DNA of 60,452 bases from a virus (Duplodnaviria > Caudoviricetes): IMG/VR virus record IMGVR_UViG_3300042516_000861, positions 1-60,452 of that record. One strand, written 5' to 3'. This document shows positions 25,561 to 56,457 of this stretch, in pieces. Below the pieces are notes generated by a model. The model was not told the origin of the DNA. It saw only the letters and a program-made list of their open reading frames with translations, and searched no databases. The first letter of the stretch is position 1. Each line of letters begins with the position of its first letter. A program made the position numbers and the translations under genes.

Positions 25561-26538
25561 TTAAGCAACGATTGTGTTCCAGAAGTAACCGAGGTCTGCT
25601 CCGATTACCTTGTTATCAAATGCCATTTCCGCTTCAATGCGGTCTGACTTGATTGACTCCATGCGGAACTGTGAAGTTCCAACAGTCTGTCCGAGACCAC
25701 CTGAAACACCTGTCCAAGCGAATGTGTAACCCGCTGATGGTGTAAGAAGTCCTGGATTTGGAGCAACATGTGTAAGGAGTGCGCCCTTGCCAAAAGCAAA
25801 GCCGTAAGCCTCAGATGCGCCTTCGTTGTTAGTAGCCTTAACAGCCTTTGCAACCATAACGCGTGGAATGTCGAACATTGCCGCGAGCATATCGGTTGTG
25901 ATTGTCTGTGAAGATGTGTACTTGATACGGTCTACAAGGTCTGGGTGATTCTTAAGAGCCTTGAATACATCGTATCCGAGAACGAGTGTGTTTGCTTCCA
26001 TTCCTGTGTTTCCAAGAATTTCTGCCTTTCCTGCTTCAAGGTCAGCAATTGGGTCTGATGATGCGTAATCTGACCAATGCTTTGTCTCACCTGATGATGG
26101 AGAGCCAGCAACACCTGTTACATCGTCAGCCCATACGCCTGTTGTGAAGAAGTCAGAAACGAACTGAAGTTCACGGCGAAGCATTAGACGGCGTGTAACG
26201 AACTCTGTTGCCTCACGGAGAGGGTTCAAAGGTGAGTCTGCGTTAGCAAGTGTCTGGTCATCTACATCTTTGTGGAACGCCCAGACATCTGCTGAGTATG
26301 TTCCAGTTGAGAGGTTGTAACCGCCACCAGCAGATTCAGTTCCAGGTGCGCGGCGCTGAGCCTCGTCACGGAACCAATCGTTCTTGGTGTAAGTGAAATA
26401 CTTGTCTGACTTCTTATCAACAGGGATTACTGGGAATACCTTGTCGGCAATGAAGTTGTCTTGGTTCTGAAGATAAGCAACCGAGATGTTTGTGAGAATT
26501 GCGTCAATGTGAACGCTATTGATATGTGGCTGTGGCAT
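25561..26538 (-). CDS. Major capsid protein
   Basis: HIDAILTNISVAY..FIADKVFPVIPV start typical of this capsid class; 325 aa; follows scaffold and cement genes. Confidence 0.9.
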   Translation of the reverse strand: MPQPHINSVHIDAILTNISVAYLQNQDNFIADKVFPVIPVDKKSDKYFTYTKNDWFRDEAQRRAPGTESAGGGYNLSTGTYSADVWAFHKDVDDQTLANADSPLNPLREATEFVTRRLMLRRELQFVSDFFTTGVWADDVTGVAGSPSSGETKHWSDYASSDPIADLEAGKAEILGNTGMEANTLVLGYDVFKALKNHPDLVDRIKYTSSQTITTDMLAAMFDIPRVMVAKAVKATNNEGASEAYGFAFGKGALLTHVAPNPGLLTPSAGYTFAWTGVSGGLGQTVGTSQFRMESIKSDRIEAEMAFDNKVIGADLGYFWNTIVA

Positions 26539-27831: not shown

Positions 27832-28098
27832 TTAAGAAGAAATCAAAATCCTTAAATTGACCATGGCGGCGATTAAATCTTCATAGGCGACCATTGAAAA
27901 GGGTTGTTCGTTCTGCCAGAATCGGGCAACTCTGAAATGGTAATCGCCCTCGGTCATCTTGCTCCAGACAAAAAAAGCCTGAGAATCGTGGGGTAATTGA
28001 ACTGCTAATCCAGCGAATCCTGGAGTGGTTGCAACCGTGGCAACCTCAAAGCCCATTGACTTAATGATGCTTAAAGTGTCGTCAATAACGGTGGTCAT
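27832..28098 (-). CDS. Hypothetical protein
   Basis: ATG overlaps the TGA of the frameshifted ORF (ATGA). Confidence 0.6.
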   Translation of the reverse strand: MTTVIDDTLSIIKSMGFEVATVATTPGFAGLAVQLPHDSQAFFVWSKMTEGDYHFRVARFWQNEQPFSMVAYEDLIAAMVNLRILISS

Positions 28099-28340
28099 TT
28101 GCGCTTTGGAGGTCTTAGGATGTCCATGTCATCCATCCACTTTGGGTCATCGGCATCCAATTCTTCGTATTCTTCTTCTGAGTCATCATTGTGGGAATGA
28201 AGTTTCTTTGGACTCTTTGGGTTCTTTGGCTCGGAGGAATCTTCACCTTCGGAGTCATCAGGGCTGTACTTTCCGTTCGCCCACGCACCATGGGAGCCTT
28301 GGTCGTGGCTACCGTGCTTAGATACTCCTACTTTTTTTTT
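28095..28340 (-). CDS. -1 frame extension of 28328-28732 carrying tag copy 10 and an acidic peptide
   Basis: Not in the ORF track. KKKVGVSKHGSHDQGSHGAWANGKYSPDD...RPPKRK*; no own start codon; begins at an A9G run. Confidence 0.7.
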   Translation of the reverse strand, partial: KKKVGVSKHGSHDQGSHGAWANGKYSPDDSEGEDSSEPKNPKSPKKLHSHNDDSEEEYEELDADDPKWMDDMDILRPPKRK

Positions 28341-28732
28341 AGTGTTGAGACTTTGTGACCAACCTTTGTTTCAGTTGGCTTTCCATCTCGGTACAACTGA
28401 ATCAGAGCGGCTGGGTCATCTTCGCTTCCCTCAATAGAAAAACTTGAATCAGGAACATTGATTTTGCCATCGCGCACGATACGCACAATCTTGCCTGTAG
28501 CCGTACCGCCTGATGAATTCCAAGAAACCATGTCGCCTCTGGATACAGAGACAGCCTTTTTCATTTCGTAAGCCATGTCGCGCATAGCCTTTTCAATCAT
28601 AGACTTTGCGTAACCCTTGAGACCAGCGATTCCCTTTTCATCAACTTCTTTTTCAATCATCGCGTATTCATCGTCCTTCATGCTTTTCATGGGACCATTG
28701 CGAAGTTCCTTGAGAATCTTTTTGTCTTTCAT
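28328..28732 (-). CDS. Head-region protein with C-terminal Hva1/DUF2945-like Tudor domain
   Basis: GDMVSWNSSGG...GSEDDPA...HKVSTL pattern. Confidence 0.6.
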   Translation of the reverse strand: MKDKKILKELRNGPMKSMKDDEYAMIEKEVDEKGIAGLKGYAKSMIEKAMRDMAYEMKKAVSVSRGDMVSWNSSGGTATGKIVRIVRDGKINVPDSSFSIEGSEDDPAALIQLYRDGKPTETKVGHKVSTLKKK

Positions 28733-29430
28733 GTGGTTTCCTTCGGCTTCTTTTTCTTTGGGTTCATAATTGTATCAACATGGACACTATTGACTCCTGG
28801 ACCATCTTCCTTCTCAACTTCTTCCATATCAACATAAAGGCGCTCTGCCTTACCGCCGATTGAATAGCCAAGAATCTTTCCAGACTTTACCAAGTCCCAT
28901 GCCCAAGGCTCCCAGATAACACCGAGAAATACTGTGTTTGGTGGGTATGTATGGTTTACATCAATCCCGCTTATTGTTTTAATTGGAACTGTTAATTCGT
29001 ATGGGAACGCCATAACTTCTACCCATTCTCCAGCAACCACATCGCGGTCATGCTGTAGACGGATACGGCGGTCATTAGTCTTTACATAATCCCAGACTGC
29101 TCGTTGCAACTCATCGGCATCTGTCCATTCACCATGGGCATCAATACGGTCTGGAATATACATAGCCCCTAGCGTGTAACGCTTAGCATCTTCAGCCTTT
29201 GAAACTTCATAGGCTCCAATGCTCTTAGGCGCTGCGAAAGCATCTGGGAATGAACTCATTGCAAGGGCTTCAGTAATCTCCTCATAGTCACCTTCGCCCA
29301 TAACTAGATAGGCTGAAATAAGGCGAGTCGGTGTCCATCCCTGTGTTGGGTACCAGCGCTCCTCATCAATGATGTTGAAGCGATAGAGGTTATGGGGTAA
29401 ACCTCTGCTCATCTTTACGAAATATCTCAT
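28729..29430 (-). CDS. XkdF-like prohead serine protease with an extra N-terminal domain of about 65 aa
   Basis: YIPDRIDAHGEW, LQHD, VKSGKILGYSIGG motifs of the XkdF/Peptidase_S78_2 type. Confidence 0.8.
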   Translation of the reverse strand: MRYFVKMSRGLPHNLYRFNIIDEERWYPTQGWTPTRLISAYLVMGEGDYEEITEALAMSSFPDAFAAPKSIGAYEVSKAEDAKRYTLGAMYIPDRIDAHGEWTDADELQRAVWDYVKTNDRRIRLQHDRDVVAGEWVEVMAFPYELTVPIKTISGIDVNHTYPPNTVFLGVIWEPWAWDLVKSGKILGYSIGGKAERLYVDMEEVEKEDGPGVNSVHVDTIMNPKKKKPKETT

Positions 29431-32144
29431 TTGACCACTTCTCTCTTAAAGGTAAGTTTATCAACCAGGGTTGATTTAATCAAGCCAGCCTCTTGAGCCG
29501 TCTGGAACTGCTGAAGAACAAGTGTTCCCGTAGCGATAATTGCTCCGTAGTTTGCTGGACGAACAACGCCTTTGGCAATGTCAATCATCTGATTCCACAT
29601 ACTTTCTCGGGTCGAATCATTCAACTCAACCTGATATTTCTTGTAGATAGGGTGCGTTCCGCCTTCGCCTTCTTTATGAGCAAATGAACTCGGCGTGTGT
29701 AATTGAATCTCTACCTCAATGCCGTCTTTCCTTGCTTTGATATTAACTCCATCGTAAGGGTCGCCAGATTGCCAGAAATTCTTAACTCGTAATGTGAAGC
29801 CAGATGCCTCAAGAGCCTTTATTGTTGAATCAAGGGATTGAGCGTAATTCTCATCGCCAACTTTGAGCGTATAGCGAACTGCATCCGAGACAGCATCAGC
29901 CGCTCTTGACCTATCGCCATCAAATTCTGTAACTGCATCGCCATCAATTTTGCGAGCCAAAGAATCTGTTGATTTTACTCTTTGTTCCAATTGGACAAAT
30001 TCTCCGCCAGCATTTTCCTGGATGACTTTCATCAACTCTGTAACTTTTGGTTCAACCGCAAGCGCTCTTTCTCGGATACGCTTTGCTTCGGCAACTGCCT
30101 CTGCTGACCATTGTGGTCTAGCCATAACATCTGGGGCTAATGGTGGGACATCACCAGTCACATTCATAGCCCATGAGCCGTGTTTCTTTTGGTCATGCTC
30201 ACCATGCTTTGCGACATCTGACCAAGCCTTGCCGTCTCCAGAAAGAACATCAGAGTGTTGAAGGTTTTGCTCAGGAAACATATCTCTGTGGAACTGAAGC
30301 ATTGCTGAAGCCAAGCCTCGGCGTTGATGTGCAGGTTTCACAATCGCTTCATAGATTGTTGCAAAATTATCGTTTTTTGCGGATGTTCGCGCAACACTTC
30401 CAGCACCAGGCGGAAGAACCTCTATTTTTCCTACTATCAATTTGGCTATTTTCTGTCCCCATCCATCAATGGTTGTCCCATCGGTAGGTTTTTTAAGGGC
30501 AAAAATTTCACTCCCTTTTCCACCTTGGAGAAAAAGCACATAATCTGTTGGTTGTTTTCCTTCAGGCTGATAACGAACTACTCGCGTATTCTCATTGAAG
30601 AATTCATTAACGCCATCGTTCTTGCCAATGATGGTTAATTTCGGTGAACCTGAAGCAGCCCAAGAACCGTGTGTGGATTGGTCGTGTTCCTCATGTTTTG
30701 TAAGAGGTTTCCACGCAAAAGATTTCTTTGCGGGTGCATCAATAGCCTGTGCTTCAAATCCGTTGGCTGTAGACCATTCAAGAGAAATATCTAGCGCTTC
30801 TTGTGCTGTTACTGATAAACGATAAACAGGTAATTTAGTGCCAGGATTATCAAAGGCAAAAGCAACTGAAGCGCCCCATGTATGGTGACCGTCAATTACG
30901 AAACCATCGCTGGAAATAAGGATTCTTTCTTTTTCTGGAATTCCACCATCCTCACGGAATTTATTGTAAATCGCTCCAGAACGAGCAGCAGAAATTTCTT
31001 TCTGAACTGGTTTTAATGTGGTTGGGTCAATTTCTTCAGCCGTTGATGTAATGCCGTCAGACTTTTCAATTTCAGCAAGGAAGCGACCTCGTTCTTTTCC
31101 AGGAATCTGCGGCATATCTTTGCGAGCAATTCCCATACCTTCATCGCCATATAACAATGTTCCTTCAACACTTAATTCAGTAAGGTCTGGGTGGTCATCT
31201 CGTTTCGCCGCCGACATGAGAAAGGCTGAGACATTTTCTTTCTCAACTGTTGGGTGACCGCCATCCAAAATTGCTTGAGCAATATCGTCAGCCCATGAGC
31301 CGTGAGTCTTTTGGTCGTGCTGTCCCTGATTATGTTTTGCGACTTCTTTTTCAGCCCGAGCAATCATGGTTTTAGCCCAAGTAAATCCTGCATCGCCGCC
31401 CCAGGCATCCCAGGCAACTCGACCCGCTGAAGGGAATCCCTTTTCGCCTTGGCTAAAACCGATAGCCTCTTTGTCTACTTCGTGGCGAGCCAAAAATGAT
31501 TTCATTCGCTTCAGGGTTGCAAGCGAAACACCTTCTCCAGATGCCAACTGACCAGCGCGAGAGCGACCAATACCAGTAAAGCCGTCTCCAGCCTTGCCCT
31601 CAGAAATCCAATCAAGCGCTCTGCGGGCTGCGGTGCGGACAGCCATCGGAGGTATGTAACTATCTGACTTCTTAAATTCGTGCATCTGCGCTAAGCGCTT
31701 ATCAGCCTCAGCCTTTGTGTTATATGTGCCGAACTTTCTTTTGCCTTCCTCGTCATAAACTGTGTACTTGCCATCCTCACGGCGAATCATTTTGTTTAAT
31801 TCTTCAAATGGCTCTAAGCGCATTTCATAACCAGTAGTGGTCAAAAATAACTGGACATCGGCAATCGCTGAACCTGTAGATTTAATAACATCGGCAATCA
31901 TGTCGGCTGGGAGTGAGCCAGCAAGGGCTTTGAGATTGGCGTTTTTCATTGTGTCTACGAGGATTTCGAACTCATCCCAGACATCGTTCTCAGGCGCTTC
32001 TAGCCCACGGCGCAACATCTCATTGACGGCAAGGTGATGGACTTCTAATACTTCTGGGGTTGCCTCTGACTTATGTAGGCGTTCATGCAAGGCGCGTAGT
32101 TTATCTGCGCTTAACTGGATTAGTTTTGGTGCAATATCAGCCAT
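29427..32144 (-). CDS. Multidomain polyprotein: head-associated modules, tag-ParB/Srx-like, tag-GNAT, tag-RelA/SpoT-like synthetase
   Basis: Three tags; ILISSDGFVIDGHHTW (ParB); HQRRGLASAML (GNAT motif A); RVKSTDSLARK, DAVRY, YDGVN, EIQLHT (RelA/SpoT Syn motifs). Confidence 0.8.
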   Translation of the reverse strand: MADIAPKLIQLSADKLRALHERLHKSEATPEVLEVHHLAVNEMLRRGLEAPENDVWDEFEILVDTMKNANLKALAGSLPADMIADVIKSTGSAIADVQLFLTTTGYEMRLEPFEELNKMIRREDGKYTVYDEEGKRKFGTYNTKAEADKRLAQMHEFKKSDSYIPPMAVRTAARRALDWISEGKAGDGFTGIGRSRAGQLASGEGVSLATLKRMKSFLARHEVDKEAIGFSQGEKGFPSAGRVAWDAWGGDAGFTWAKTMIARAEKEVAKHNQGQHDQKTHGSWADDIAQAILDGGHPTVEKENVSAFLMSAAKRDDHPDLTELSVEGTLLYGDEGMGIARKDMPQIPGKERGRFLAEIEKSDGITSTAEEIDPTTLKPVQKEISAARSGAIYNKFREDGGIPEKERILISSDGFVIDGHHTWGASVAFAFDNPGTKLPVYRLSVTAQEALDISLEWSTANGFEAQAIDAPAKKSFAWKPLTKHEEHDQSTHGSWAASGSPKLTIIGKNDGVNEFFNENTRVVRYQPEGKQPTDYVLFLQGGKGSEIFALKKPTDGTTIDGWGQKIAKLIVGKIEVLPPGAGSVARTSAKNDNFATIYEAIVKPAHQRRGLASAMLQFHRDMFPEQNLQHSDVLSGDGKAWSDVAKHGEHDQKKHGSWAMNVTGDVPPLAPDVMARPQWSAEAVAEAKRIRERALAVEPKVTELMKVIQENAGGEFVQLEQRVKSTDSLARKIDGDAVTEFDGDRSRAADAVSDAVRYTLKVGDENYAQSLDSTIKALEASGFTLRVKNFWQSGDPYDGVNIKARKDGIEVEIQLHTPSSFAHKEGEGGTHPIYKKYQVELNDSTRESMWNQMIDIAKGVVRPANYGAIIATGTLVLQQFQTAQEAGLIKSTLVDKLTFKREVVK

Positions 32145-32323: not shown

Positions 32324-34240
32324 CTATGATTTTACCGCACTTGCTGGCTTTTCTCTAGCGGTGCCGTCATAGACCAAGCCATCGCCATCTCTATCAACTG
32401 GACCTTCAAAGAGATTTCTGCCTTCAGGGGTAAGAATCTTCACATAATTAAGATTGAGGCTATCGAAAAGCCTCTCGCCAGCCCAAGTTACCGCCTTCTT
32501 TGTATCGCCAGTAACAGGGTGTTCGTAATCTGATGTAGTTCTGTCTTTGTAACCAATCATCACGAAATCGCTAGGCAAAGGAAAGTCATCGTTCTTTAGG
32601 TCTTTTATAGAATCCCAACGCGCTCCGTTTTCATCAGATACATAACCATTAGTAGCCCTACGCATAAGGGAATCAAATTCTTCTCTGGCTGGCTGACCAA
32701 AATCAAGTTCATCAGCACTATTCATATTAGTGATTCTGTTTACAACTATATGTTTAAAATCAGAGTCAATTTCTTCTGGTTGCCAGTCAAAACCGTCACG
32801 CGCCCACACGCGAGCGCCGTCCCAGCCAGTTCCAACTGTAATAGCGCCAAAACCTCTCTGGGTATACCAATCTTCGGAGCGGTCAATAAATTCTTTACCG
32901 AACCCTAAACCTTTATAGTCATCGTCAAGTTTTAATAACTTATGTTCTACTATCCAGACCCCATCTTCTTTATAGAATACTCGCTCGAACTCACCAGCAT
33001 AGTTTCCATTGGAATCTTCAATGTTGCCTTTTACGCTAATGCCCGCATCACCTGTAGGTGTATCGCTAGTCAAGTCCACATATTGAATCTCGGAACTCAG
33101 CGTAGTAACAGCATCGCCAACAGCATTTACTACGGTGTGGTCTGTATTGAAGATTTCTTCGAAATATGGAGTTACATTGGTGAGCATTTGCTCGGTACTT
33201 TCACCTCCGTTTTGGTCCATCCATAGCCCTGCAAGTTCTCCAGGCTCGCTGTATTCAATAAGTTCATCAATCATTTCCGCTTGGACATCTTCATAAATAG
33301 TAGATTTTTCTTGCTCTGTGTACTCATGGTTTGGGAATTCTTCTTGGAGTCTTTCCAGTCGCGCACTCACTCGACCATCAATTCCCTCGGTGGCTTGTGA
33401 ATATAAACCAGGGTCGTTCTCGACAAGCATTTTTAAGTCATCATAACCTGGTCCTTCTCCGCTGCCTTCCAGGATTGCATCTAAATCTTCTAGCGCTGGT
33501 CCTAGAGTGGACATTGCCTCCATGCGACCAATTTCTTCATCGGTGTATCCAGTAGCCCAAGAACCATGTGTTTTTTGGTCATGCTCGCCGTGTTTCAAGA
33601 CAGGGATTAACCCAGCCTCAAAACGAATTACTTTGTAGGCTTTGCCAACTTCTCCCAGATTTTTTGGGCGTAGGCTTCGATTTCCGAATCGCTCATATCC
33701 GCGATGTTGGCTGGCAGTTCTACCGCTTCCAGTTTTTTCGACATTACCTGTTCCTCCTGTTTCGATTTCAGCGAAGTTAGTTACATCCCAAATAGAAATT
33801 TGGTCTTGCTTTTGCCCTGCTGAGATTGCTCTCTCTCTATCTTGGATGTTTTCCGATACATCAAGATAAACCTGTCCATCGTCCTTATTATGCCATAACC
33901 CCAGGTAGTTTTTACCACCGCCGAGTTCTGCCTTATGTTTCTTCATGTAATCAGCAAGAATCTTTGGACCCTTGATTGGGTCATAGAAATCATCGGCAGA
34001 TACGACAGAGCCGTATTTAGCGCCCTTAGCGACCATGTACCCGCTAGTAGGTTCTGAGCCATCCACCATGTTTACGGAAAGACCGCCGTTCTCACGAACT
34101 CGGCTTAGGATTGAATCGGCAACTCCAGCGCCCATGCCACCAGTAGCCCAGTTTCCGTGGGTCTTTTGGTCGTGGGTGCCGTGTTTCTCCATAACAAGGG
34201 TTAGCCCCTTGCTTGAGTCATAACCAAAATTTTCAATCAT
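32324..34240 (-). CDS. Polyprotein: leader, tag-unknown domain, tag-acidic region plus GNAT, C-terminal DGDG motif
   Basis: Two tags; YKGLGFGKEF...GARVWARDGFDW GNAT; DRDGDGLVYDGT. Confidence 0.75.
   Translation of the reverse strand: MIENFGYDSSKGLTLVMEKHGTHDQKTHGNWATGGMGAGVADSILSRVRENGGLSVNMVDGSEPTSGYMVAKGAKYGSVVSADDFYDPIKGPKILADYMKKHKAELGGGKNYLGLWHNKDDGQVYLDVSENIQDRERAISAGQKQDQISIWDVTNFAEIETGGTGNVEKTGSGRTASQHRGYERFGNRSLRPKNLGEVGKAYKVIRFEAGLIPVLKHGEHDQKTHGSWATGYTDEEIGRMEAMSTLGPALEDLDAILEGSGEGPGYDDLKMLVENDPGLYSQATEGIDGRVSARLERLQEEFPNHEYTEQEKSTIYEDVQAEMIDELIEYSEPGELAGLWMDQNGGESTEQMLTNVTPYFEEIFNTDHTVVNAVGDAVTTLSSEIQYVDLTSDTPTGDAGISVKGNIEDSNGNYAGEFERVFYKEDGVWIVEHKLLKLDDDYKGLGFGKEFIDRSEDWYTQRGFGAITVGTGWDGARVWARDGFDWQPEEIDSDFKHIVVNRITNMNSADELDFGQPAREEFDSLMRRATNGYVSDENGARWDSIKDLKNDDFPLPSDFVMIGYKDRTTSDYEHPVTGDTKKAVTWAGERLFDSLNLNYVKILTPEGRNLFEGPVDRDGDGLVYDGTAREKPASAVKS
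33628..33744 (-). CDS. 38-aa gene nested out of frame inside the 32324-34240 polyprotein
   Basis: AGGAGG RBS 8 nt before ATG; MSKKLEAVELPANIADMSDSEIEAYAQKIWEKLAKPTK*. Confidence 0.65.
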   Translation of the reverse strand: MSKKLEAVELPANIADMSDSEIEAYAQKIWEKLAKPTK

Positions 34241-35012
34241 TTACTAACTCCACATCCCAGACTTTACCTTCATTATTGAGGATTTTGAACTTACTATCCC
34301 GAGGTAGAAGGAACTCTGCCTCTCTTGAGAATTGAGATTCTATGCCTGTAACGCTCGCGGGGAAAACCCCTTGCGTACCAGCGGGTAACTTCATGCGGAG
34401 AACGATGCCCTGATACATTCCACTTTCAGCGTTTGCGAACTTTGCACCCATCGCAGGGTCAAGGCTAGTAGAAGAAAATCCTTTGTCGGAATAAACATCC
34501 CCAACTTTTAACGCCTCGAAAAAATCTAATCCATTGCCTTTTACTCCACGGTACACAGTTATAGGGCTATCCAGAGGTGGGGCATACTCGATTGCTCCAT
34601 CTAAAAGAGCGATTGTGGTCGCAACACCATCTGTGCTAATAACTGGGTCACGGAGCGCTTCGTTTATTGTGTATCCGAGCATACTTTGGTAGGTATCAAC
34701 AGCGCGTGTGAACATACTGCCAACTACCCTGTGTCTAAGAATTGTGTCCATAAAAGATAATTCTCTGTCTGTATCAGAACCTAATTTAGCAATTTCAGAG
34801 TCACGCCATGCAACCAAGTCTGTAACAACCTCGCTACCAGTAGCCCAGTTTCCATGAGTCTTTTGGTCATGTTCGCCGTGCTTAGCAACTGGATTAACAA
34901 TCCATTTAAGGACTGCTCCGTTGGTTTGAGCCATGTAACTATTGAACTGGGCTTGAGTAAGGCTTTTGCGCTTGCCAGTAACAGGGCTATCAATAACAAT
35001 TTCACTTATCAT
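34233..35012 (-). CDS. Tagged VIP2-like (R-S-E) ADP-ribosyltransferase
   Basis: VYRG, GFSSTS, EAEFLLPRDSKF motifs after the tag. Confidence 0.85.
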   Translation of the reverse strand: MISEIVIDSPVTGKRKSLTQAQFNSYMAQTNGAVLKWIVNPVAKHGEHDQKTHGNWATGSEVVTDLVAWRDSEIAKLGSDTDRELSFMDTILRHRVVGSMFTRAVDTYQSMLGYTINEALRDPVISTDGVATTIALLDGAIEYAPPLDSPITVYRGVKGNGLDFFEALKVGDVYSDKGFSSTSLDPAMGAKFANAESGMYQGIVLRMKLPAGTQGVFPASVTGIESQFSREAEFLLPRDSKFKILNNEGKVWDVELVND

Positions 35013-35925
35013 CCCTAGTCACCTCAATCCCTGCTTTCTCAAGAAGTGCAATCGTATCCTCACCAACAATAGAAAATCTCTGTAATCGTACAGATTTAAT
35101 ATCACTCAACCTCACCCCTCCATGAATCTGCGCTTCAAAATAGTCAATATCTCTAATTGTTCTTACAGACCTAATTGGTCGTGATACTGTAGTCATATTT
35201 CTTTGAAAGTGACGGCTTCGGTAGGCTGAATCTACTTGCTCAAGACTTAAATTACCTTTTCGAGCATCTGTTACTAAAACTGGTGTTAAGCCGTGATTAG
35301 CCGAATCTCCAGGAGAAATCGTTGTTCTACCAGCAACCTTATCTTTCAAGATTATTTTTACATCACCGTATGAAAGTGTTTCATTTTCGACTGATGGTTG
35401 AAGTGGGGTGTCGAAATATCCGTAAATTGGACTATTTGCATTTGTAGGCTGACCCCATAAACCTTTTTCCAAGTCGTAGCGACCCTCGTTGTATTCAATT
35501 TCAAATCCTAGTGTTGGTTCAGGCAATTCTGTAAGACTCTTAAAACCACCATGCTCAACTATTTTTCTTAGTTCTAAATCTCCTGACGAAACTCTTATAG
35601 CGATAGGAGCCTCGGCTACTTGTTGCAACTGACTTCTACCCAAGTTTAATTCTTCGGAACTTAACTCTCTAGCCGTTAGTCTTTCTTGTTCTTTGAACTC
35701 AGGCTTCCACTCATAAGGCATAGCATCAAGACCAGACTCGCTAGAGCCTTCAGCCCAATTACCGTGGGTAGATTGGTCATGTTCTTGGTGCTTTTCCATC
35801 TTGTCAAAGAAATCTTCGACTCTGCCGCCTTCTAAAAGATGGGCATAGTAAGCGTTAAAATCTTCTTTGTTGAGGTTATTGGCTAGGTAAGCGTATCGCC
35901 TTGATTGTGCAGGAGTAGTCATCAT
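35002..35925 (-). CDS. Tagged DUF3626-like (ART-fold) protein
   Basis: PIYGY, YGDVKIILK, RTTISPGDS, YFEAQIHGG motifs. Confidence 0.7.
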   Translation of the reverse strand: MMTTPAQSRRYAYLANNLNKEDFNAYYAHLLEGGRVEDFFDKMEKHQEHDQSTHGNWAEGSSESGLDAMPYEWKPEFKEQERLTARELSSEELNLGRSQLQQVAEAPIAIRVSSGDLELRKIVEHGGFKSLTELPEPTLGFEIEYNEGRYDLEKGLWGQPTNANSPIYGYFDTPLQPSVENETLSYGDVKIILKDKVAGRTTISPGDSANHGLTPVLVTDARKGNLSLEQVDSAYRSRHFQRNMTTVSRPIRSVRTIRDIDYFEAQIHGGVRLSDIKSVRLQRFSIVGEDTIALLEKAGIEVTRDDK

Positions 35926-37424
35926 TCACCAACCGCCTTTTCTGCAACTGTAAGCATTGACCTATCTAAAACTACATAAATGCCGCGCTTGTCATCTTGG
36001 ACATGACCAGCATCGTAATACTGATAGCCCATAGCGGCAAGCCTTCTACCGACATTATTACGGTGAGACTTTTCCCCGCCCCAGACCATTTCCTTCATAA
36101 CTGTTTTTACAACTTCGGCTGTTGGCGCTTTGGCTGTATCAGGAATCATCATTGCCATCACTTTTCCGTTACCCAATTTATTGTTATCGGGGTCTACATC
36201 GTCAGCATAACTTTGAGCAGAATCAAGAAATGATGTTGTGTATGTTCCATTACCAAAGGCTCCCCAGCCTCCAAAATACTCGCCCTCTCTAAAATCGGTG
36301 AGGGCTTGCTCTGCCGTATAGGTCACTTCGCTATCTCCAGTAGATGAATAATCAGCGATGCCTCGAAAAACTATAAATCCACCTCCCTGCTCGGCTGATA
36401 ACTTTGCTAAATTCTCTAAATCCTCAAGTGTTTCTACAGTTTTTGGTTTCTCAGTAAAGCCTTGGCGCTCGGCAATAATCTTGAGCGCATTATCACCGTA
36501 TGCTTTGCCAGCGGTGGTTTCTGCAAAATCCATATTCTCGATTAAATCTAAAGTCTCAACATTATTACCAGCGGCTCTAACGGCTGCTTCGATGGCTATT
36601 CCAGGGGTATTTTGAGTCAGCGAACTATTGATGATGTTTAATTTTTCTTTGAAAAAGACCTCATCGAGCGCTTCAGTAATATCAACTCCAGCGCCACCGC
36701 CGCCTGCCCATGAGCCGTGTGTGCGTTGGTCATGTAATCCTTGGAGGTGCTTTTGGACTGCCGTTCCAATATCTGTCTTATTAACCGTTAATTTATCGGC
36801 ATTGAATAAAACAACCTCAGCCCTACCTGTTTTGTAAATTGAATAACCGTCATAACCTTTTGCCGCCCAGTAGATATTGGCAATGTCAGAATCAGAGAAA
36901 TTGTCCATCTTTCCAGAAGTAATTCTTTCTATAATCTTCGGCATATCTAAAGATGTTTCTTTATCAAAAAGACTATACGCTTTACTCCAAGCAATTTCGC
37001 CTTCAACCAACTTAACGCTTTTATCTAATTTCAAGCCTATAAGGTCTCCATACGCAGCCGCATATTCTGGTTCAGATGAGATATAAATTCCTTGACCCCA
37101 AGTTTGAAATGGAGTGAAACGAATTTCTCCATTTAATAAACTTTGAGCCTGTATATTTACATCTGTAACCCCACGGAAAAAGTTAATTTCTTCTTCTGAC
37201 AAATCTTCAAGTTTAGGCTTCATGCTCTTGCCTAAGCGCTCGGCAACCTTTTTATACATCTCATTAACTGTGGTAGAGCCAGAGATAATATCTTTGATTT
37301 CATCATCGGATAATTCGCTGGATGAGCCTTGGGAACCTTCAGCCCAATTACCATGAGATGACTGGTCATGTTCCTGATGTTTGAAAACTGGGATAAGCCC
37401 AGGCGCGAACTTGATTACCTTCAT
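35922..37424 (-). CDS. Polyprotein with two tagged ADP-ribosyltransferase-like domains
   Basis: Likely start MKVIKF at 37424 (ATGA overlap with the MuF stop); FFRG..GQGIY..AAAY..GYDG..EVVLF and VFRG..FGNGTY..AQSY..GYQ..YVVLDR. Confidence 0.7.
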   Translation of the reverse strand: MKVIKFAPGLIPVFKHQEHDQSSHGNWAEGSQGSSSELSDDEIKDIISGSTTVNEMYKKVAERLGKSMKPKLEDLSEEEINFFRGVTDVNIQAQSLLNGEIRFTPFQTWGQGIYISSEPEYAAAYGDLIGLKLDKSVKLVEGEIAWSKAYSLFDKETSLDMPKIIERITSGKMDNFSDSDIANIYWAAKGYDGYSIYKTGRAEVVLFNADKLTVNKTDIGTAVQKHLQGLHDQRTHGSWAGGGGAGVDITEALDEVFFKEKLNIINSSLTQNTPGIAIEAAVRAAGNNVETLDLIENMDFAETTAGKAYGDNALKIIAERQGFTEKPKTVETLEDLENLAKLSAEQGGGFIVFRGIADYSSTGDSEVTYTAEQALTDFREGEYFGGWGAFGNGTYTTSFLDSAQSYADDVDPDNNKLGNGKVMAMMIPDTAKAPTAEVVKTVMKEMVWGGEKSHRNNVGRRLAAMGYQYYDAGHVQDDKRGIYVVLDRSMLTVAEKAVGE

Positions 37425-38431
37425 CGGGTTCCTCGGTCTGGAGGGATGATAACGAAGGTACAGCGGCAATTAGGGTGGACTATGGGCTTCTCCAGCCCGA
37501 TAGAGAACAGACCAATCCAAGGGACGACTTCTCCATTCAAAGGCGCACAAATGTCGCAGGTGCGCTCGTCTGGGGCTGTAATCCACATCTTCATAGTTGC
37601 AGGGTCTATGTATCCCGCTTCATCGGCTTGGCGATAGCCTTCCATTCGCCCTTCATTCTGGGCTATCTGAATCTCTGTGCGAGCAATCATGCGAGCGCGA
37701 GCGCCCTTGAGCCTGTCTGCGTAGGCTGTTGCAGATTTCTGAGCGCGTTGGATTGCTGTAGCCTCTTTGATACCAGCCGCGATGAGACGGTCTAGTTCTC
37801 GAATCTCGAACTTTCGAACGGCATCTGCCCACTTAGGGTGGAGACCAATAATGTTTTTAATTCGAACTGCCGTGCGGCGCACATCAATCTGCTCATTGAA
37901 TGAATCAATAATTATCTTACGGATTGCCTGACGGGTAAGGTCGTCAATACTTGTCACCAACTGCCCAGCCCTGCGAGCAGCAAAGGCTAGTGAATTAGGG
38001 TTTGTTTTATTAAAAGAAAGACTGAAGGCAACTGGTTCTGGATTAACTCTTGCCCAATTCGGAATCTTCGTAAAGTCCATATTTGCCATGGATTCAGGAT
38101 TTGCAATTCGAACTTGGGTAGGCGTAAATGCTGGCAGCGCCAAAACTGGAGCAATCTTTTTCAATCCTTGGATTGCTTCAACTCCACCGATGTCAATGAT
38201 GCCGAGCAACTCGGCTTCAATCTTAGGAGCATCACCATTGACAGAGATTGCTCTAAGCAAGCGGTCTAAGGTATCTGCATCTAAGCGACCAAGAATCTTT
38301 GCCAACTCATCCACTTTGATTTTGTCGGTTGCATTACGAATCGCATTAACGAGAACGCGAGCCATCGCCGCTTCTTCGGCGGTTAGAGGATTTCTGGAGC
38401 CATCTGAGCCAGAGCCAAAACTAATTGCCAT
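37421..38431 (-). CDS. MuF / SPP1 gp7-like head morphogenesis protein
   Basis: RARMIARTE, W..APDERTCDICAPLNG, HPNCRC. Confidence 0.9.
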   Translation of the reverse strand: MAISFGSGSDGSRNPLTAEEAAMARVLVNAIRNATDKIKVDELAKILGRLDADTLDRLLRAISVNGDAPKIEAELLGIIDIGGVEAIQGLKKIAPVLALPAFTPTQVRIANPESMANMDFTKIPNWARVNPEPVAFSLSFNKTNPNSLAFAARRAGQLVTSIDDLTRQAIRKIIIDSFNEQIDVRRTAVRIKNIIGLHPKWADAVRKFEIRELDRLIAAGIKEATAIQRAQKSATAYADRLKGARARMIARTEIQIAQNEGRMEGYRQADEAGYIDPATMKMWITAPDERTCDICAPLNGEVVPWIGLFSIGLEKPIVHPNCRCTFVIIPPDRGTR

Positions 38432-38434
38432 GCT

Positions 38435-39862
38435 CTACTCCAAATCGCCGTCTAGCGGTTCCTGTCCTTCTGGAATTTCAAGTTCTTCTTCCAGAGATGG
38501 CGGTGCATCAAATCCTTGAGCAGCAGCCCCTTCAGCGCCAGGCATTGCTGGAGCGCCGTAGGCTTCTTGTCCGTCATGTTCGGCAGGTGGTAATCCAGCC
38601 AAATCGCGTAAGTAATCTTCCAACTTAGGGTCTGGCATAAGAACGCCAGCGGTAGCCAACTTGGAAATGTAATCTGCAACCTCGGTCAAATCAATATGGC
38701 TTACTTCTCCGTATGTGAGGAATGGGGCGCGTGAGACATCCATTCCGTTTAGTTTCATAAGGCGAGGAATTGCATATTGATTAAATACTTCAGCAATGTT
38801 CTTGGCGATTGCATCAACTGACATTGACCATAAATCCATCTTTGATGAACCTAGGGCGTATGAACCTACGCGGTCTGAGCCTAGAAGAATAAAGTCTGAA
38901 AGGATTGACATAGACATGCGCTGGTCGTAGCGCTGAACAATTTTGTCTGTATCAAATTGGCGTGAGCCGCCTGATGATAGGAGAACTAAGTCGAACTGCT
39001 TATGTCCTGCATCATCATAAAGTGTTGGAAATACAACACCCTCTTGCTCATTGCGCTTGATAGATGTAACGATGTTTTGAACTGTCGAAAGAACATTTGC
39101 TTGCTCGGCTGTAGCCGCACTTGATAAATACTCAGGCGGTACATAGGCAACTGGCAATCCTGCTAGGTCGCGTTCAATACCGACTGCTTCGATTTCTTCG
39201 ATACGGCGCTTGAAGAACCAAGGGCGGTATGCGTTACGAAGGATTGAGCGACCCTCTGGGTTATTTTTAGCCGTAGTTGTACGGAATAGCAGAGCCTTCT
39301 CGATAGGGATGATGTGAGTGCCGCCCGATGATGGGTCGGTCTGCTCCATCGCTTGAATTCCACCGCGCTCGTCAATCTGCCAACGGAATAAAGTTTCTTG
39401 GGAACGGATAGGCAATTTACGCCATCCGATTTTATTATCTGTGTGCTTAGAACGCTTAGATGGGTCTTTTGCCTCTGGACCTGTACGGACTTTGTAAACA
39501 ATTTCGTTGTAGGAATATCCGTAAACGAGCATTGAGAGAATTTGAGAAAGTGTCTGGTCCCATGAATCCGACATATCGTGTAAGCAAGAATCTATGAACG
39601 CTGCTACTTCTTCATCTTCAGGCTTTACTTCACCATCTACTGAATTATCGGAATATGGGTCTACGCGCCATTCAAGGCGTGTAATAACTTTCTCAATCGC
39701 ATAAAGCATTGAGCCGATTGTTGGGTCATTGTCAGCCATCTCACGATAAACGCGAGCGCCACGAAGTCCACGAAGATTAACAAGGAATTCTTCATAAACC
39801 GTTCCACCAGAACGGCGTAAACCCGTAGAGCCGAGTTCTTGTAAATCTGGCTTTTCTGCCAT
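38435..39862 (-). CDS. Portal protein (Mu gp29/DUF935-like)
   Basis: YGYSYNEIVY, NPEGRSILR, GSYALG motifs; upstream of MuF. Confidence 0.88.
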   Translation of the reverse strand: MAEKPDLQELGSTGLRRSGGTVYEEFLVNLRGLRGARVYREMADNDPTIGSMLYAIEKVITRLEWRVDPYSDNSVDGEVKPEDEEVAAFIDSCLHDMSDSWDQTLSQILSMLVYGYSYNEIVYKVRTGPEAKDPSKRSKHTDNKIGWRKLPIRSQETLFRWQIDERGGIQAMEQTDPSSGGTHIIPIEKALLFRTTTAKNNPEGRSILRNAYRPWFFKRRIEEIEAVGIERDLAGLPVAYVPPEYLSSAATAEQANVLSTVQNIVTSIKRNEQEGVVFPTLYDDAGHKQFDLVLLSSGGSRQFDTDKIVQRYDQRMSMSILSDFILLGSDRVGSYALGSSKMDLWSMSVDAIAKNIAEVFNQYAIPRLMKLNGMDVSRAPFLTYGEVSHIDLTEVADYISKLATAGVLMPDPKLEDYLRDLAGLPPAEHDGQEAYGAPAMPGAEGAAAQGFDAPPSLEEELEIPEGQEPLDGDLE

Positions 39863-54499: not shown

Positions 54500-54871
54500 A
54501 TAAGTCCGTGTAGATTCCATCAAATTATCAACTGTGACTAAATATCCTCTTGATTGGTTTGGTGGAATCTCGCAATTTATCTGTCTGCCAAATTTAATAC
54601 AGGCATCTTTCAGAACTACCGTAGGGACGATGAGAACTGTTCCTTCTAGGTTAAACGCCCAATGCGATGCCTGGGTAGACGATAAGCCCGATGGATACCA
54701 GCCCTCGGTATTATTCGACCAGCAATAAATCTCAATGTATAAATTGCCTGTTTCTTTCCAGCGCCTATCGGTTTTTACTTCAACTGTTTCAATGAGATGA
54801 GCGACCATCTGCTCACCCGCTTGACCAAAACGAAAGTCTAAATCCCAATCGGAGTTTTTCATAATGTCCAC
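54473..54871 (-). CDS. PD-(D/E)XK nuclease-like protein
   Basis: GQAGE...VEVKTD...TGNLYIE...PSGL. Confidence 0.65.
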   Translation of the reverse strand: MDIMKNSDWDLDFRFGQAGEQMVAHLIETVEVKTDRRWKETGNLYIEIYCWSNNTEGWYPSGLSSTQASHWAFNLEGTVLIVPTVVLKDACIKFGRQINCEIPPNQSRGYLVTVDNLMESTRTYLLDGNQSS

Positions 54872-56457
54872 GGATTTGACTGAGTGAATGAAAGAGGCGA
54901 GATAGGTGCGTGTACAGTTTTATTCTCGTATAGCGCCAAAAGAATCGCTTCAGCGCGGTCTGGAGAATGAACTCCGCGCTTCTTCATGTCCACCTTTGAT
55001 TCAATCAAGATGCGACCAGAAGAATCCGATTTGAATGTAGGTCCAGCCAACTGAGCCAGGACGGGTCTATCCACATCCAGGCGAATTTCTTGCTTATCGT
55101 CTTTAGGTTGCAGCATTGAGCGGGTATTCCACCACATCTCGGCGCGTTGATTCTTAAACTTGGCTTGGTCTTTAGGTCTCTCTGCCACATTGACACCAAC
55201 CACGATTGCCCGTAGCCCTCGCTCTTTAACCCAGCGGTCTAGCAAAGAGACAACTCCCCAGCCAACGCCAATTGTGTCAATCTTGACTCGTACCATATCT
55301 GGTACGCCTCTGGTTTTATGTTCGGCAACTGCTCTCTCAATCTCAGCGATTACCACGCCAGCGACATCAACTGCGTTCGCATTAGCCTTGCCAGATGAGC
55401 GGTGAACTAATGAGACTTTGTAACCGTCTGCTTTTGCGATTACGAATTCATCTCCGCCATCAGATGCAATATCCACCCCGAGCCGAATAACTGCCGATTC
55501 AAGGTAATCTTCATTGTTGGTAGCCAATTCCGCCCAATGGTAGGGAATGACCTTTCCTGTTCCCGTTTGTGGGAATCGGGCATTGACACGGGCTTCAACG
55601 AATGGAGAATCTTCTCCGAATTCGCTGATTACATCATCCACCCAACTCTGGTCTACCAGGTGCGTAGCGACTGTGTGAGCCTCTACATGCTGTGGGCAAC
55701 TGCGGCATTGTCCAGTTTCCTCACCCGTAAAGTTAGGGGTGTCGTAAGCCCCGATAGGGATGGACTCATAAATAGGCGAATTGCAGATACGCTCGAACCA
55801 GGTTTGCTCCTGGTCTGTCGGCGGGTTACCCAATACCAGGAGCCGCGTGTGTCCACCCGTCATAAGGGCTTCTAAGGCGCTGCCAATCTTGTCCGATAAA
55901 CCTCCAGCCTCATCCACTACTACGAGCAGGTGAGGCGCGTGGATACCTTGAACTGCCGCTTCATTGTTATCGGCTGGACGGAAACCGTAGGCAACTACCG
56001 TGTCATCCATTTTCCATTCAGTCGTGAGGATTTCTCCTGGCAGATTGTGAGCCATGTGAACTCGGCGAATCTGCGCCCACATAATGTTTCGCACCTGCTT
56101 AAAAGTTGTCGCTGTGGTGATAGCGATAGCGGTACCAGGCGGGTGAACTGCTATCCACCATGCAACGGCTCTAGCGGCTAAGTGAGATTTACCTGGGGCG
56201 TGGCAAGCGGGAACTGTGGTTCTCTTATTGTCTCGGATTGAATTTAGAATCTCGCGCTGTTTAGACCAGAGTGTTTCGCCCAAGCCTTCCTCAACAAAGC
56301 CAACTGGGTCGTGTTCGTATCTAGCCCAAGGGTTAGTTATCTCAGCATCAAGGATGACCGATAGCGCATACTTCTCATCATCGTTAAGCGAGAGATAAAT
56401 CTTTGCGCGTTCTTCGGGCGTGGCATTGAGAACGAGGTCTACGAGCCGTTCACCCAT
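54859..56457 (-). CDS. terL: Terminase large subunit
   Basis: HAPGKS Walker A, VVVDEA Walker B, LGNP, GVDIA nuclease, SPDRAEA. Confidence 0.93.
   Translation of the reverse strand: MGERLVDLVLNATPEERAKIYLSLNDDEKYALSVILDAEITNPWARYEHDPVGFVEEGLGETLWSKQREILNSIRDNKRTTVPACHAPGKSHLAARAVAWWIAVHPPGTAIAITTATTFKQVRNIMWAQIRRVHMAHNLPGEILTTEWKMDDTVVAYGFRPADNNEAAVQGIHAPHLLVVVDEAGGLSDKIGSALEALMTGGHTRLLVLGNPPTDQEQTWFERICNSPIYESIPIGAYDTPNFTGEETGQCRSCPQHVEAHTVATHLVDQSWVDDVISEFGEDSPFVEARVNARFPQTGTGKVIPYHWAELATNNEDYLESAVIRLGVDIASDGGDEFVIAKADGYKVSLVHRSSGKANANAVDVAGVVIAEIERAVAEHKTRGVPDMVRVKIDTIGVGWGVVSLLDRWVKERGLRAIVVGVNVAERPKDQAKFKNQRAEMWWNTRSMLQPKDDKQEIRLDVDRPVLAQLAGPTFKSDSSGRILIESKVDMKKRGVHSPDRAEAILLALYENKTVHAPISPLSFTQSNPWTL

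Follow-up and report, generated by a model that had tools for sequence, protein, structure and literature searches.

How can a phage build a toxin into its own head without harming the cell in which that head is assembled? Many phage head proteins have a toxin domain at their end, but it has been described as an open question in the field whether these toxins are carried in the capsid, and what protects the cell that makes them (PMC10083569). The IMG/VR virus record IMGVR_UViG_3300042516_000861 raises this question in a specific form. This linear stretch of 60,452 bp, complete or nearly so (estimated 99%) and called the window below, carries a head module on its minus strand. The module includes cargo genes, a 905-amino-acid (aa) multi-domain protein that ends in a RelA/SpoT-type synthetase domain and a 233-aa protein in which a leader of about 68 aa precedes an XkdF-type prohead protease. 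The original prediction read this junction as an antitoxin fused to a morphogenesis enzyme. That reading is supported by the present analysis, according to which the leader probably attaches to the synthetase and blocks it, both being translated from one late mRNA, the synthetase immediately ahead of the leader.

A Toxin-Like Synthetase at the End of a Head Protein

Each of the four motifs expected of a synthetase occurs among the final ~250 residues of the 905-aa protein, far beyond what chance would give: RVKSTDSLARK (722-732), DAVRY (754-758), YDGVN (797-801), and EIQLHT (812-817). We take these to represent the basic residues of motif 1, the Mg-binding Asp, Y-x-G, and E-x-Q-x-H-T, respectively. 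The catalytic residues R722/K724, D754, Y797-G799, and E812/Q814/H816 were invariant in 39 homologues, and in the numbering of the domain itself R72, K74, D104, R107, Y108, E162, Q164, and H166 were invariant across the 39. When the last 257 aa were compared as a single sequence with the Protein Data Bank (PDB), the structure 8vx3, labeled SaSAS (SaEAS), was matched at E 3.7e-10; the profile of the 39 homologues matched it at E 6.2e-23, and this was the sole match at E <= 0.01. The Asp of SDAVRYT in the window protein aligns with the position that is mutated in 8vx3, which is the inactive D121A form of SaEAS (PMC12691689).

Phage relatives of this domain point to a particular group of toxins. 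In a tblastn search of 50,697 GenBank phage records with the last 255 aa, 45 records were matched, all below 60% identity and, by the first word of the organism name, from Streptococcus (35), Pasteurella (3), Mannheimia (2), Haemophilus (2), Aggregatibacter (2), and Ralstonia (1). Among the 40 matches listed (E 3e-16 to 4e-4, identity 27-36%), every annotated one fell within the C-terminal portion of MuF-type "head morphogenesis" or minor head proteins. The Apk2 toxin ends of Streptococcus, Mannheimia, and Pasteurella phages were 31-36% identical to the window synthetase, and the characterized Apk2 toxins belong to phages of S. pneumoniae, Mannheimia, and Pasteurella (PMC12226406). No match to the MuF family PF04233 was found in the 905-aa protein, and PF04233 lies in a separate gene (Table 1). 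Because the 905-aa protein holds no MuF domain, the window domain is, as judged by its sequence, a toxin domain of Apk2-like kind on another carrier protein. The suggestion that the toxin is of the Apk2 type thus held for its homology to MuF C-termini and failed for a MuF domain in the same polypeptide. Pfam models were of little help: the synthetase domain alone matched no family even at E <= 1, the RelA_SpoT model included, and the whole 905-aa protein matched none at E <= 0.01.

A Folded Leader on the Prohead Protease

The 233-aa protein had been described as carrying about 65 aa ahead of an XkdF-like domain, and both parts were recovered. PF14550 (XkdF, Peptidase_S78_2) was matched over residues 75-197 at E 6.1e-12 (46.1 bits against a cut-off of 24), and residues 1 to ~68, with the pattern MRYF...LYRF...W...GW...GDYEEITEALA (the MRYF leader below), form a separately folded unit. 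Modeled alone with AlphaFold2, the leader gave a predicted local distance difference test (pLDDT) of 92.2 and a predicted template modeling score (pTM) of 0.79, with the order b1-b4, a1, b5, a2, a3, the last two helices being short. In the full-length model, the mean pLDDT was 56.8 and the protease part folded poorly; the leader stood at ~90 and the linker residues 68-83 below 50.

In relatives of the 233-aa protein, the stretch that joins leader and core has no conserved Met. An internal start for the protease was ruled out on this ground, and the protease is therefore made only with the leader attached. In one match to the leader profile (P0159), synthetase, leader, and protease are continuous in a single open reading frame (ORF). 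Relatives of the 233-aa protein as a whole were found in 456 protein clusters and 283 IMG/VR stretches. Against GenBank phages, the leader had no tblastn match at E <= 0.01 and the region no megablast match.

The leader itself belongs to a much wider family. A search of 1.84 billion representative proteins with the leader profile returned 203 cluster representatives at E <= 1e-3, 55 of them at E <= 1e-10. Among the 150 matches listed, most were free-standing proteins of 66-90 aa that covered the full profile; the 27 free-standing members examined all end directly past an FPxAF motif, exactly where the leader ends, and their own profile matched the window leader at E 1.8e-20. Because most of the listed relatives are free-standing and the 27 examined end where the leader ends, the leader appears to be a captured member of a small-protein family. 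A giant protein of 4174 aa (P0136) matched the C-terminal half of the leader profile 13 times, each time in part.

In the search for neighborhoods of the free-standing members, no relative was found when two single proteins were searched against viral contigs, one protein against metagenome contigs, or a three-protein alignment against genome contigs. A second metagenome scan returned a single locus, L151, in which a 68-aa free-standing MRYF-family protein (811-1017) lies beside a C5 cytosine methylase and a 665-aa P-loop protein. This protein may be an orphan immunity gene in a defense-like locus.

The Leader Is Predicted to Occupy the Acceptor Site

The complex of leader and synthetase was predicted in repeated runs with interface scores (ipSAE) of 0.89, 0.89, and 0.88, and the best of three controls reached 0.00. 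The pLDDT of the partners was at least 87, and the runs shared at least 61% of their contacts. The mark used for such predictions is reached by 58 of 80 solved complexes and by 2 of 110 mismatched pairs, counts that are only rough for this complex, given its user-supplied alignments. Leader residues 39-45 and 47-48 were predicted to contact D795-P796-Y797, N801, K803, Q814, H831, and Y834 of the synthetase, motifs that presumably form the acceptor-nucleotide side of RelA/SpoT enzymes. The leader is thus predicted to bind the acceptor-site cleft, and IapK, the immunity protein of Apk2, acts by occluding the acceptor site (PMC12226406).

Toxin and Leader Are Exchanged Together

Two IMG/VR scans gave 283 and 289 confirmed stretches; the best 80 of each provided 144 loci, and removal of duplicates left 94 distinct junctions, window counted. 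These were typed with hidden Markov models of both leaders and of the synthetase and by reading of the ORFs. Synthetase cargo was followed by the MRYF leader at 77 distinct junctions, and at three more the MRYF leader was present and the contig ended ahead of the cargo. At 11, the cargo was closed by a Zeta_toxin domain (PF06414, E 1.1e-22), and a different leader of ~75 aa, alignable among these loci, preceded the protease core. At the remaining three (eight fetched loci), neither toxin nor leader was present and the protease core continued the cargo protein in frame. The pairing of cargo and leader was broken at none of the 94. The case named beforehand as damaging to the proposal, a leader on XkdF proteases of phages that lack the synthetase, occurred at 0 of 14 distinct junctions and in 0 of 5 whole virus records. 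These records, from three leaderless phages (79%, 31%, and 88% complete) and two Zeta phages, contained no MRYF domain and no synthetase in a kind of search that recovers the window leader at E 1.8e-20.

Protease cores that are 90% identical were found without the leader exactly where the synthetase is missing. On the protease-core tree, the state of the cassette changes 9-11 times, a count that is soft because the tree came from a quick search over 152 columns; branches with good support require 4-6 of these changes at the least. A locus with the synthetase (L046) and one with Zeta (L104) are sisters with 97% support. Identity matrices of leader and synthetase were correlated at r 0.875, and at 0.765 with the protease core regressed out; none of 2000 permutations gave a value as high. 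Mean identity was 0.50 for the leader, 0.59 for the synthetase, and 0.82 for the protease core, so that leader and synthetase diverge much faster than the enzyme to which the leader is attached.

At all 73 readable junctions (72 loci and the window), the leader begins with (M/L)RYF at a position from -22 to +7 nucleotides (nt) relative to the toxin stop. Programmed read-through or frameshifting that would join toxin and leader was ruled out by this variable gap and by the presence of an own (M/L)RYF start in every leader. In the window, the toxin-gene stop and the leader start overlap as ATGA, which suggests translational coupling of the toxin gene and the leader-protease gene.

The Zeta-type loci (L081-L088, L091, L092, L094, and L104) have the same protease. 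Their leader has the consensus M-x-A-D..N-K-x-F...F-E-E-T-G...N-E-W-V-G-D-E-Y-D-D. Its profile gave no credible match in the PDB (best colicin E1, E 0.055) and no usable match in the ESM Atlas. It may be a zeta antitoxin that has gone unrecognized.

Resemblance to Known Immunity Proteins

In Apk2 phages, an ORF of 68-72 aa (IapK) lies directly past the toxin gene, usually followed by an HD hydrolase (Aph1). The leader, which starts at the toxin stop, matches the IapK ORF in size and place. When the free-standing members of the leader family were aligned by hhalign with 25 IapK relatives, the probability was 83% (E 8.4e-6) over 22 columns only; other pairings gave 79%, 51%, and 44%, always in the identical register. 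The best stretch, L..G.GD-Y/F-EE-I-T/S-E..A, overlaps the predicted contact residues of the leader. The leader thus weakly resembles IapK immunity proteins. Its earlier assignment to the IapK type stands as regards size, place, and predicted cleft binding; the evidence for membership by sequence and fold is weak.

Several observations weigh against the leader being an immunity domain or are neutral. In sequence and fold, the leader is tied only weakly to known immunity proteins; the top hhalign match spans the 22 columns mentioned. Leader profiles searched against PDB sequences gave chance matches only (cyclohexanone monooxygenase, E 1.3, and W-rich lectin repeats). Foldseek found nothing for the leader model (best E 2.0), and for the full-length 233-aa model the best E was 0.15. 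VIA-align placed Tis1 (6ox6_B), the immunity protein of the Tas1 toxin, at rank 7 of 48,161 chains (root-mean-square deviation 3.6, 56 residues aligned, and 20% identity, the highest in the list), with a Z of 2.9 that is at background and tied with unrelated rows. The Tis1 family PF24154 (Tis1_ImmP) was unmatched in the window at E <= 10, and 0 of 44 leader-family members match it; this model is narrow, as 0 of 25 IapK relatives match it either. PF24154 does occur in 11% of the members of an ESM Atlas neighbor cluster of the leader (score 0.83), which is a lead only, and an IapK profile searched against the PDB gave nothing real. In L151, the only context recovered for a free-standing member, there is no synthetase in 7 kb, of which just 810 nt lie upstream. 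Physical linkage alone could explain the co-occurrence and co-divergence of leader and synthetase. At one locus (L011, 6001-6210), codon 27 of the leader has changed from TAC to TAA and the upstream synthetase keeps all of its motifs; if this stop is real, that phage does without the leader.

Alternative Readings

In the three junction types without synthetase and leader, the protease core is the in-frame C-terminus of the cargo. The leader could be mainly a docking domain that carries the protease with the cargo into the prohead in place of the covalent link, any inhibition being incidental. Zeta-cargo phages likewise bear a cargo-specific leader on the protease, and in PHROGs other XkdF families (phrog_14859 and phrog_1530) form the C-terminal portion of larger fusion proteins. 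Against this reading, the predicted contacts of the leader fall on residues of the catalytic cleft and not on a neutral surface; most members of its family are free-standing proteins of ~70 aa that bear no protease, and it sits where Apk2 phages encode IapK. Docking as the main role is rather unlikely, and docking and inhibition are compatible with each other.

A role unrelated to the synthetase fares worse. Extensions are frequent on prohead proteases, and adjacent segments are co-inherited, so some co-occurrence and correlated divergence would be expected from shared ancestry and linkage if the leader were an ordinary pro-region or regulatory extension of this XkdF clade. Against this, cores of 90% identity lack the leader exactly where the synthetase is absent, and the state switches 9-11 times on the core tree; moreover, the leader family lives mostly apart from any protease, and the predicted complex scored far above its controls. 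Of the readings considered, this is the one to which we give the least credence. The synthetase could instead be a signaling enzyme for host takeover, wanted active in the producing cell, with the leader as its activator or specificity factor. RelA/SpoT domains of phage polyvalent proteins have indeed been proposed to interfere with host signaling (PMC5512222), but Apk2 and SaEAS lacking its signal peptide, the nearest relatives to have been characterized, show strong toxicity in the cytoplasm (PMC12226406; PMC12691689), and a contact that covers the acceptor-site motifs fits blocking better than activating. We consider a signaling role very improbable. Inhibition of the synthetase by the leader remains our preferred reading.

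A Model for Silencing and Release

According to the preferred reading, the last domain of the 905-aa protein would be an active Apk2-like RelA/SpoT synthetase toxin whose product is most likely (p)ppApp or a related pyrophosphorylated nucleotide. The leader would be its cognate immunity domain of the IapK/Tis1 kind, plugging the catalytic cleft on its acceptor-nucleotide side. Toxin and immunity domain may be regarded as one exchangeable cassette set inside an otherwise single cargo-protease gene: the toxin part would close the upstream gene, and the immunity part would open the downstream gene in one polypeptide with the protease. The synthetase would in this way be kept silent in the producing cell. 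A tblastn search of the whole window with four Aph1 proteins gave a best E of only 1.3, and because no Aph1-type hydrolase is found there, protection would rest on the leader alone. Immunity would be made only late, and therefore the producing cell would be protected and lysogens would not.

The contact between toxin and immunity domain may also hold the protease to the cargo protein, as suggested by the leaderless relatives in which protease and cargo are joined covalently. Removal after cleavage is the rule for prohead proteases as a class. Processing or self-digestion of the protease in the prohead could thus free the toxin for ejection into the next host; removal of the protease would strip the immunity domain and leave the active toxin in a capsid free of substrate, ready for ejection. 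We put forward the full sequence of events only as a tentative possibility: a cassette was inserted into a single cargo-protease gene; the toxin-immunity contact replaces the lost peptide bond; the immunity domain both silences the toxin and carries the protease into the prohead; self-digestion of the protease arms the toxin only in the sealed capsid; and the Zeta cassette works likewise, so that the head protease would serve this phage group generally as the bearer of interchangeable immunity modules.

Gene Layout, Linkers, and Other Cargo Domains

The protease gene sits between the cargo genes and the genes for scaffold and major head proteins (Table 1). Domains of the 905-aa protein are separated by linkers that read K-H-x-x-H-D-Q-x-x-H-G-S-W-A, three in number; a motif scan with the more general form K-H-x-x-H-D-Q-x-x-H-G-x-W-A found ten copies in the window, located at domain boundaries of six head-module ORFs and in the -1 frame beyond the Tudor-like ORF. 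These linkers look like processing sites for the head protease. In an unrelated protein of 629 aa (P0151), an MRYF domain is followed by such a linker.

Table 1. Positions of the head-module features in the window
Feature	Position	Strand	Remarks
Large terminase	54859..56457	minus	
Mu-type portal	38435..39862	minus	PF06074
MuF gene	37421..38431	minus	PF04233, E 4.3e-14
Cargo genes (n = 4)	32324..37469	minus	
905-aa multi-domain head cargo ("polyvalent") protein	29427..32144	minus	phrog_2859 over residues 1-499, E 8e-299
GNAT-like middle cargo domain (residues 497-644)	30213..30656	minus	Sub-cut-off matches to PF00583 (E 0.0024) and PF13508 (E 0.0022)
Linker KHGEHDQKKHGSWA before synthetase domain	30168..30209	minus	Motif scan; one of ten HDQxxHGxW copies
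RelA/SpoT-type (toxSAS-like) synthetase domain (residues 645-905)	29430..30212	minus	
ATGA overlap of toxin-gene stop and leader start	29427..29430	minus	
233-aa protein (leader and XkdF protease)	28729..29430	minus	In head module after 905-aa protein
Leader of ~68 aa, proposed immunity domain	29224..29430	minus	Autonomous alpha/beta fold
XkdF-type prohead protease core with lysine-rich tail	28729..29223	minus	In frame with leader
Small Tudor-like protein, then scaffold-like proteins		minus	Head module, after 233-aa protein
Major head protein	25561..26538	minus	
Linker motif starts	37370, 36734, 35781, 34871, 34174, 33583, 31319, 30686, 30197, 28307	minus	

The GNAT-like domain lies between two linkers and looks like a recent insertion of a cargo domain. 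A tblastn search with residues 501-640 found it in none of the first 80 related loci; among these is L001, which lacks the domain although its protease is 100% identical to that of the window. In another cargo gene, an ADP-ribosyltransferase exoenzyme domain (PF03496, E 7e-18) follows a linker (34233-35012, minus strand). The Tudor-like ORF of 134 aa stops at a run of nine A (28331-28339, minus strand). The -1 frame past it is open for ~80 codons (28095-28370, minus strand), has no start codon, and opens with the linker motif; the A-run is kept in related loci, where the Tudor-like and -1-frame parts are sometimes in one frame. The run could be a site of programmed slippage or a homopolymer sequencing error.

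Comparison with Known Systems

Toxins and immunity proteins of these kinds are already known, as are polyvalent head proteins (PMC12226406, PMC10083569, PMC5576092, and PMC5512222). The closest of the known systems is Apk2-IapK-Aph1 (PMC12226406 and PMC10083569), in which a homologous synthetase domain is likewise C-terminal in a head-module protein and a partner of ~70 aa is encoded directly after the toxin; for the window partner, occlusion of the acceptor site is predicted, which is the mode of action reported for IapK. Unlike in that system, the MuF protein of the window is separate, five genes upstream of the 905-aa gene, and the immunity part is the N-terminus of the prohead protease rather than a free gene. 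A further difference is that no Aph1-type hydrolase was detected in the window and that the sequence similarity of the leader to IapK is marginal; the Aph1 gene downstream of Apk2 is itself variable in the family (PMC10083569).

Tas1 (Apk1) and Tis1 of P. aeruginosa (6ox6) are comparable as a (p)ppApp synthetase toxin neutralized by a small protein that blocks the active site, and Tis1 is among the structural matches of the leader, though at background. They differ in that Tas1 is delivered by a type VI secretion system, not by a phage head, and that PF24154 is unmatched by the leader. PADLOC models run on the leader, the synthetase, the GNAT-like part, and the Zeta locus found nothing relevant.

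Phage polyvalent proteins (Iyer et al. 2017, PMC5512222) resemble the 905-aa protein as large, head-associated strings of conflict domains. Their domains include ParB-like, GNAT, ADP-ribosyltransferase, RelA/SpoT, and zeta-like kinase domains, and their proposed fate is processing and delivery together with the DNA (PMC5512222). In contrast to the window, processing is there assigned to zincin-like peptidase domains, and the excerpts of that paper mention neither an immunity domain borne by a protease nor the HDQxxHGxW linker. The sister phages with cargo ending in a Zeta_toxin domain, in which the protease has its own leader of ~75 aa, recall zeta-epsilon systems; unlike in those systems, the Zeta-type leader has no detected similarity to epsilon or to any solved protein. 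In the literature available in excerpt, no description was found of an immunity domain on a prohead protease, of alternative leaders matched to the cargo, or of a leaderless cargo-protease fusion as the empty state.

Implications

An immunity domain that is made together with the prohead protease would put the toxin-immunity complex at the assembling head, and immunity borne by the protease would give a simple route to its removal at maturation. The arrangement is widespread in uncultivated phages, and its at least two exchangeable versions of toxin and leader provide natural controls for experiments.

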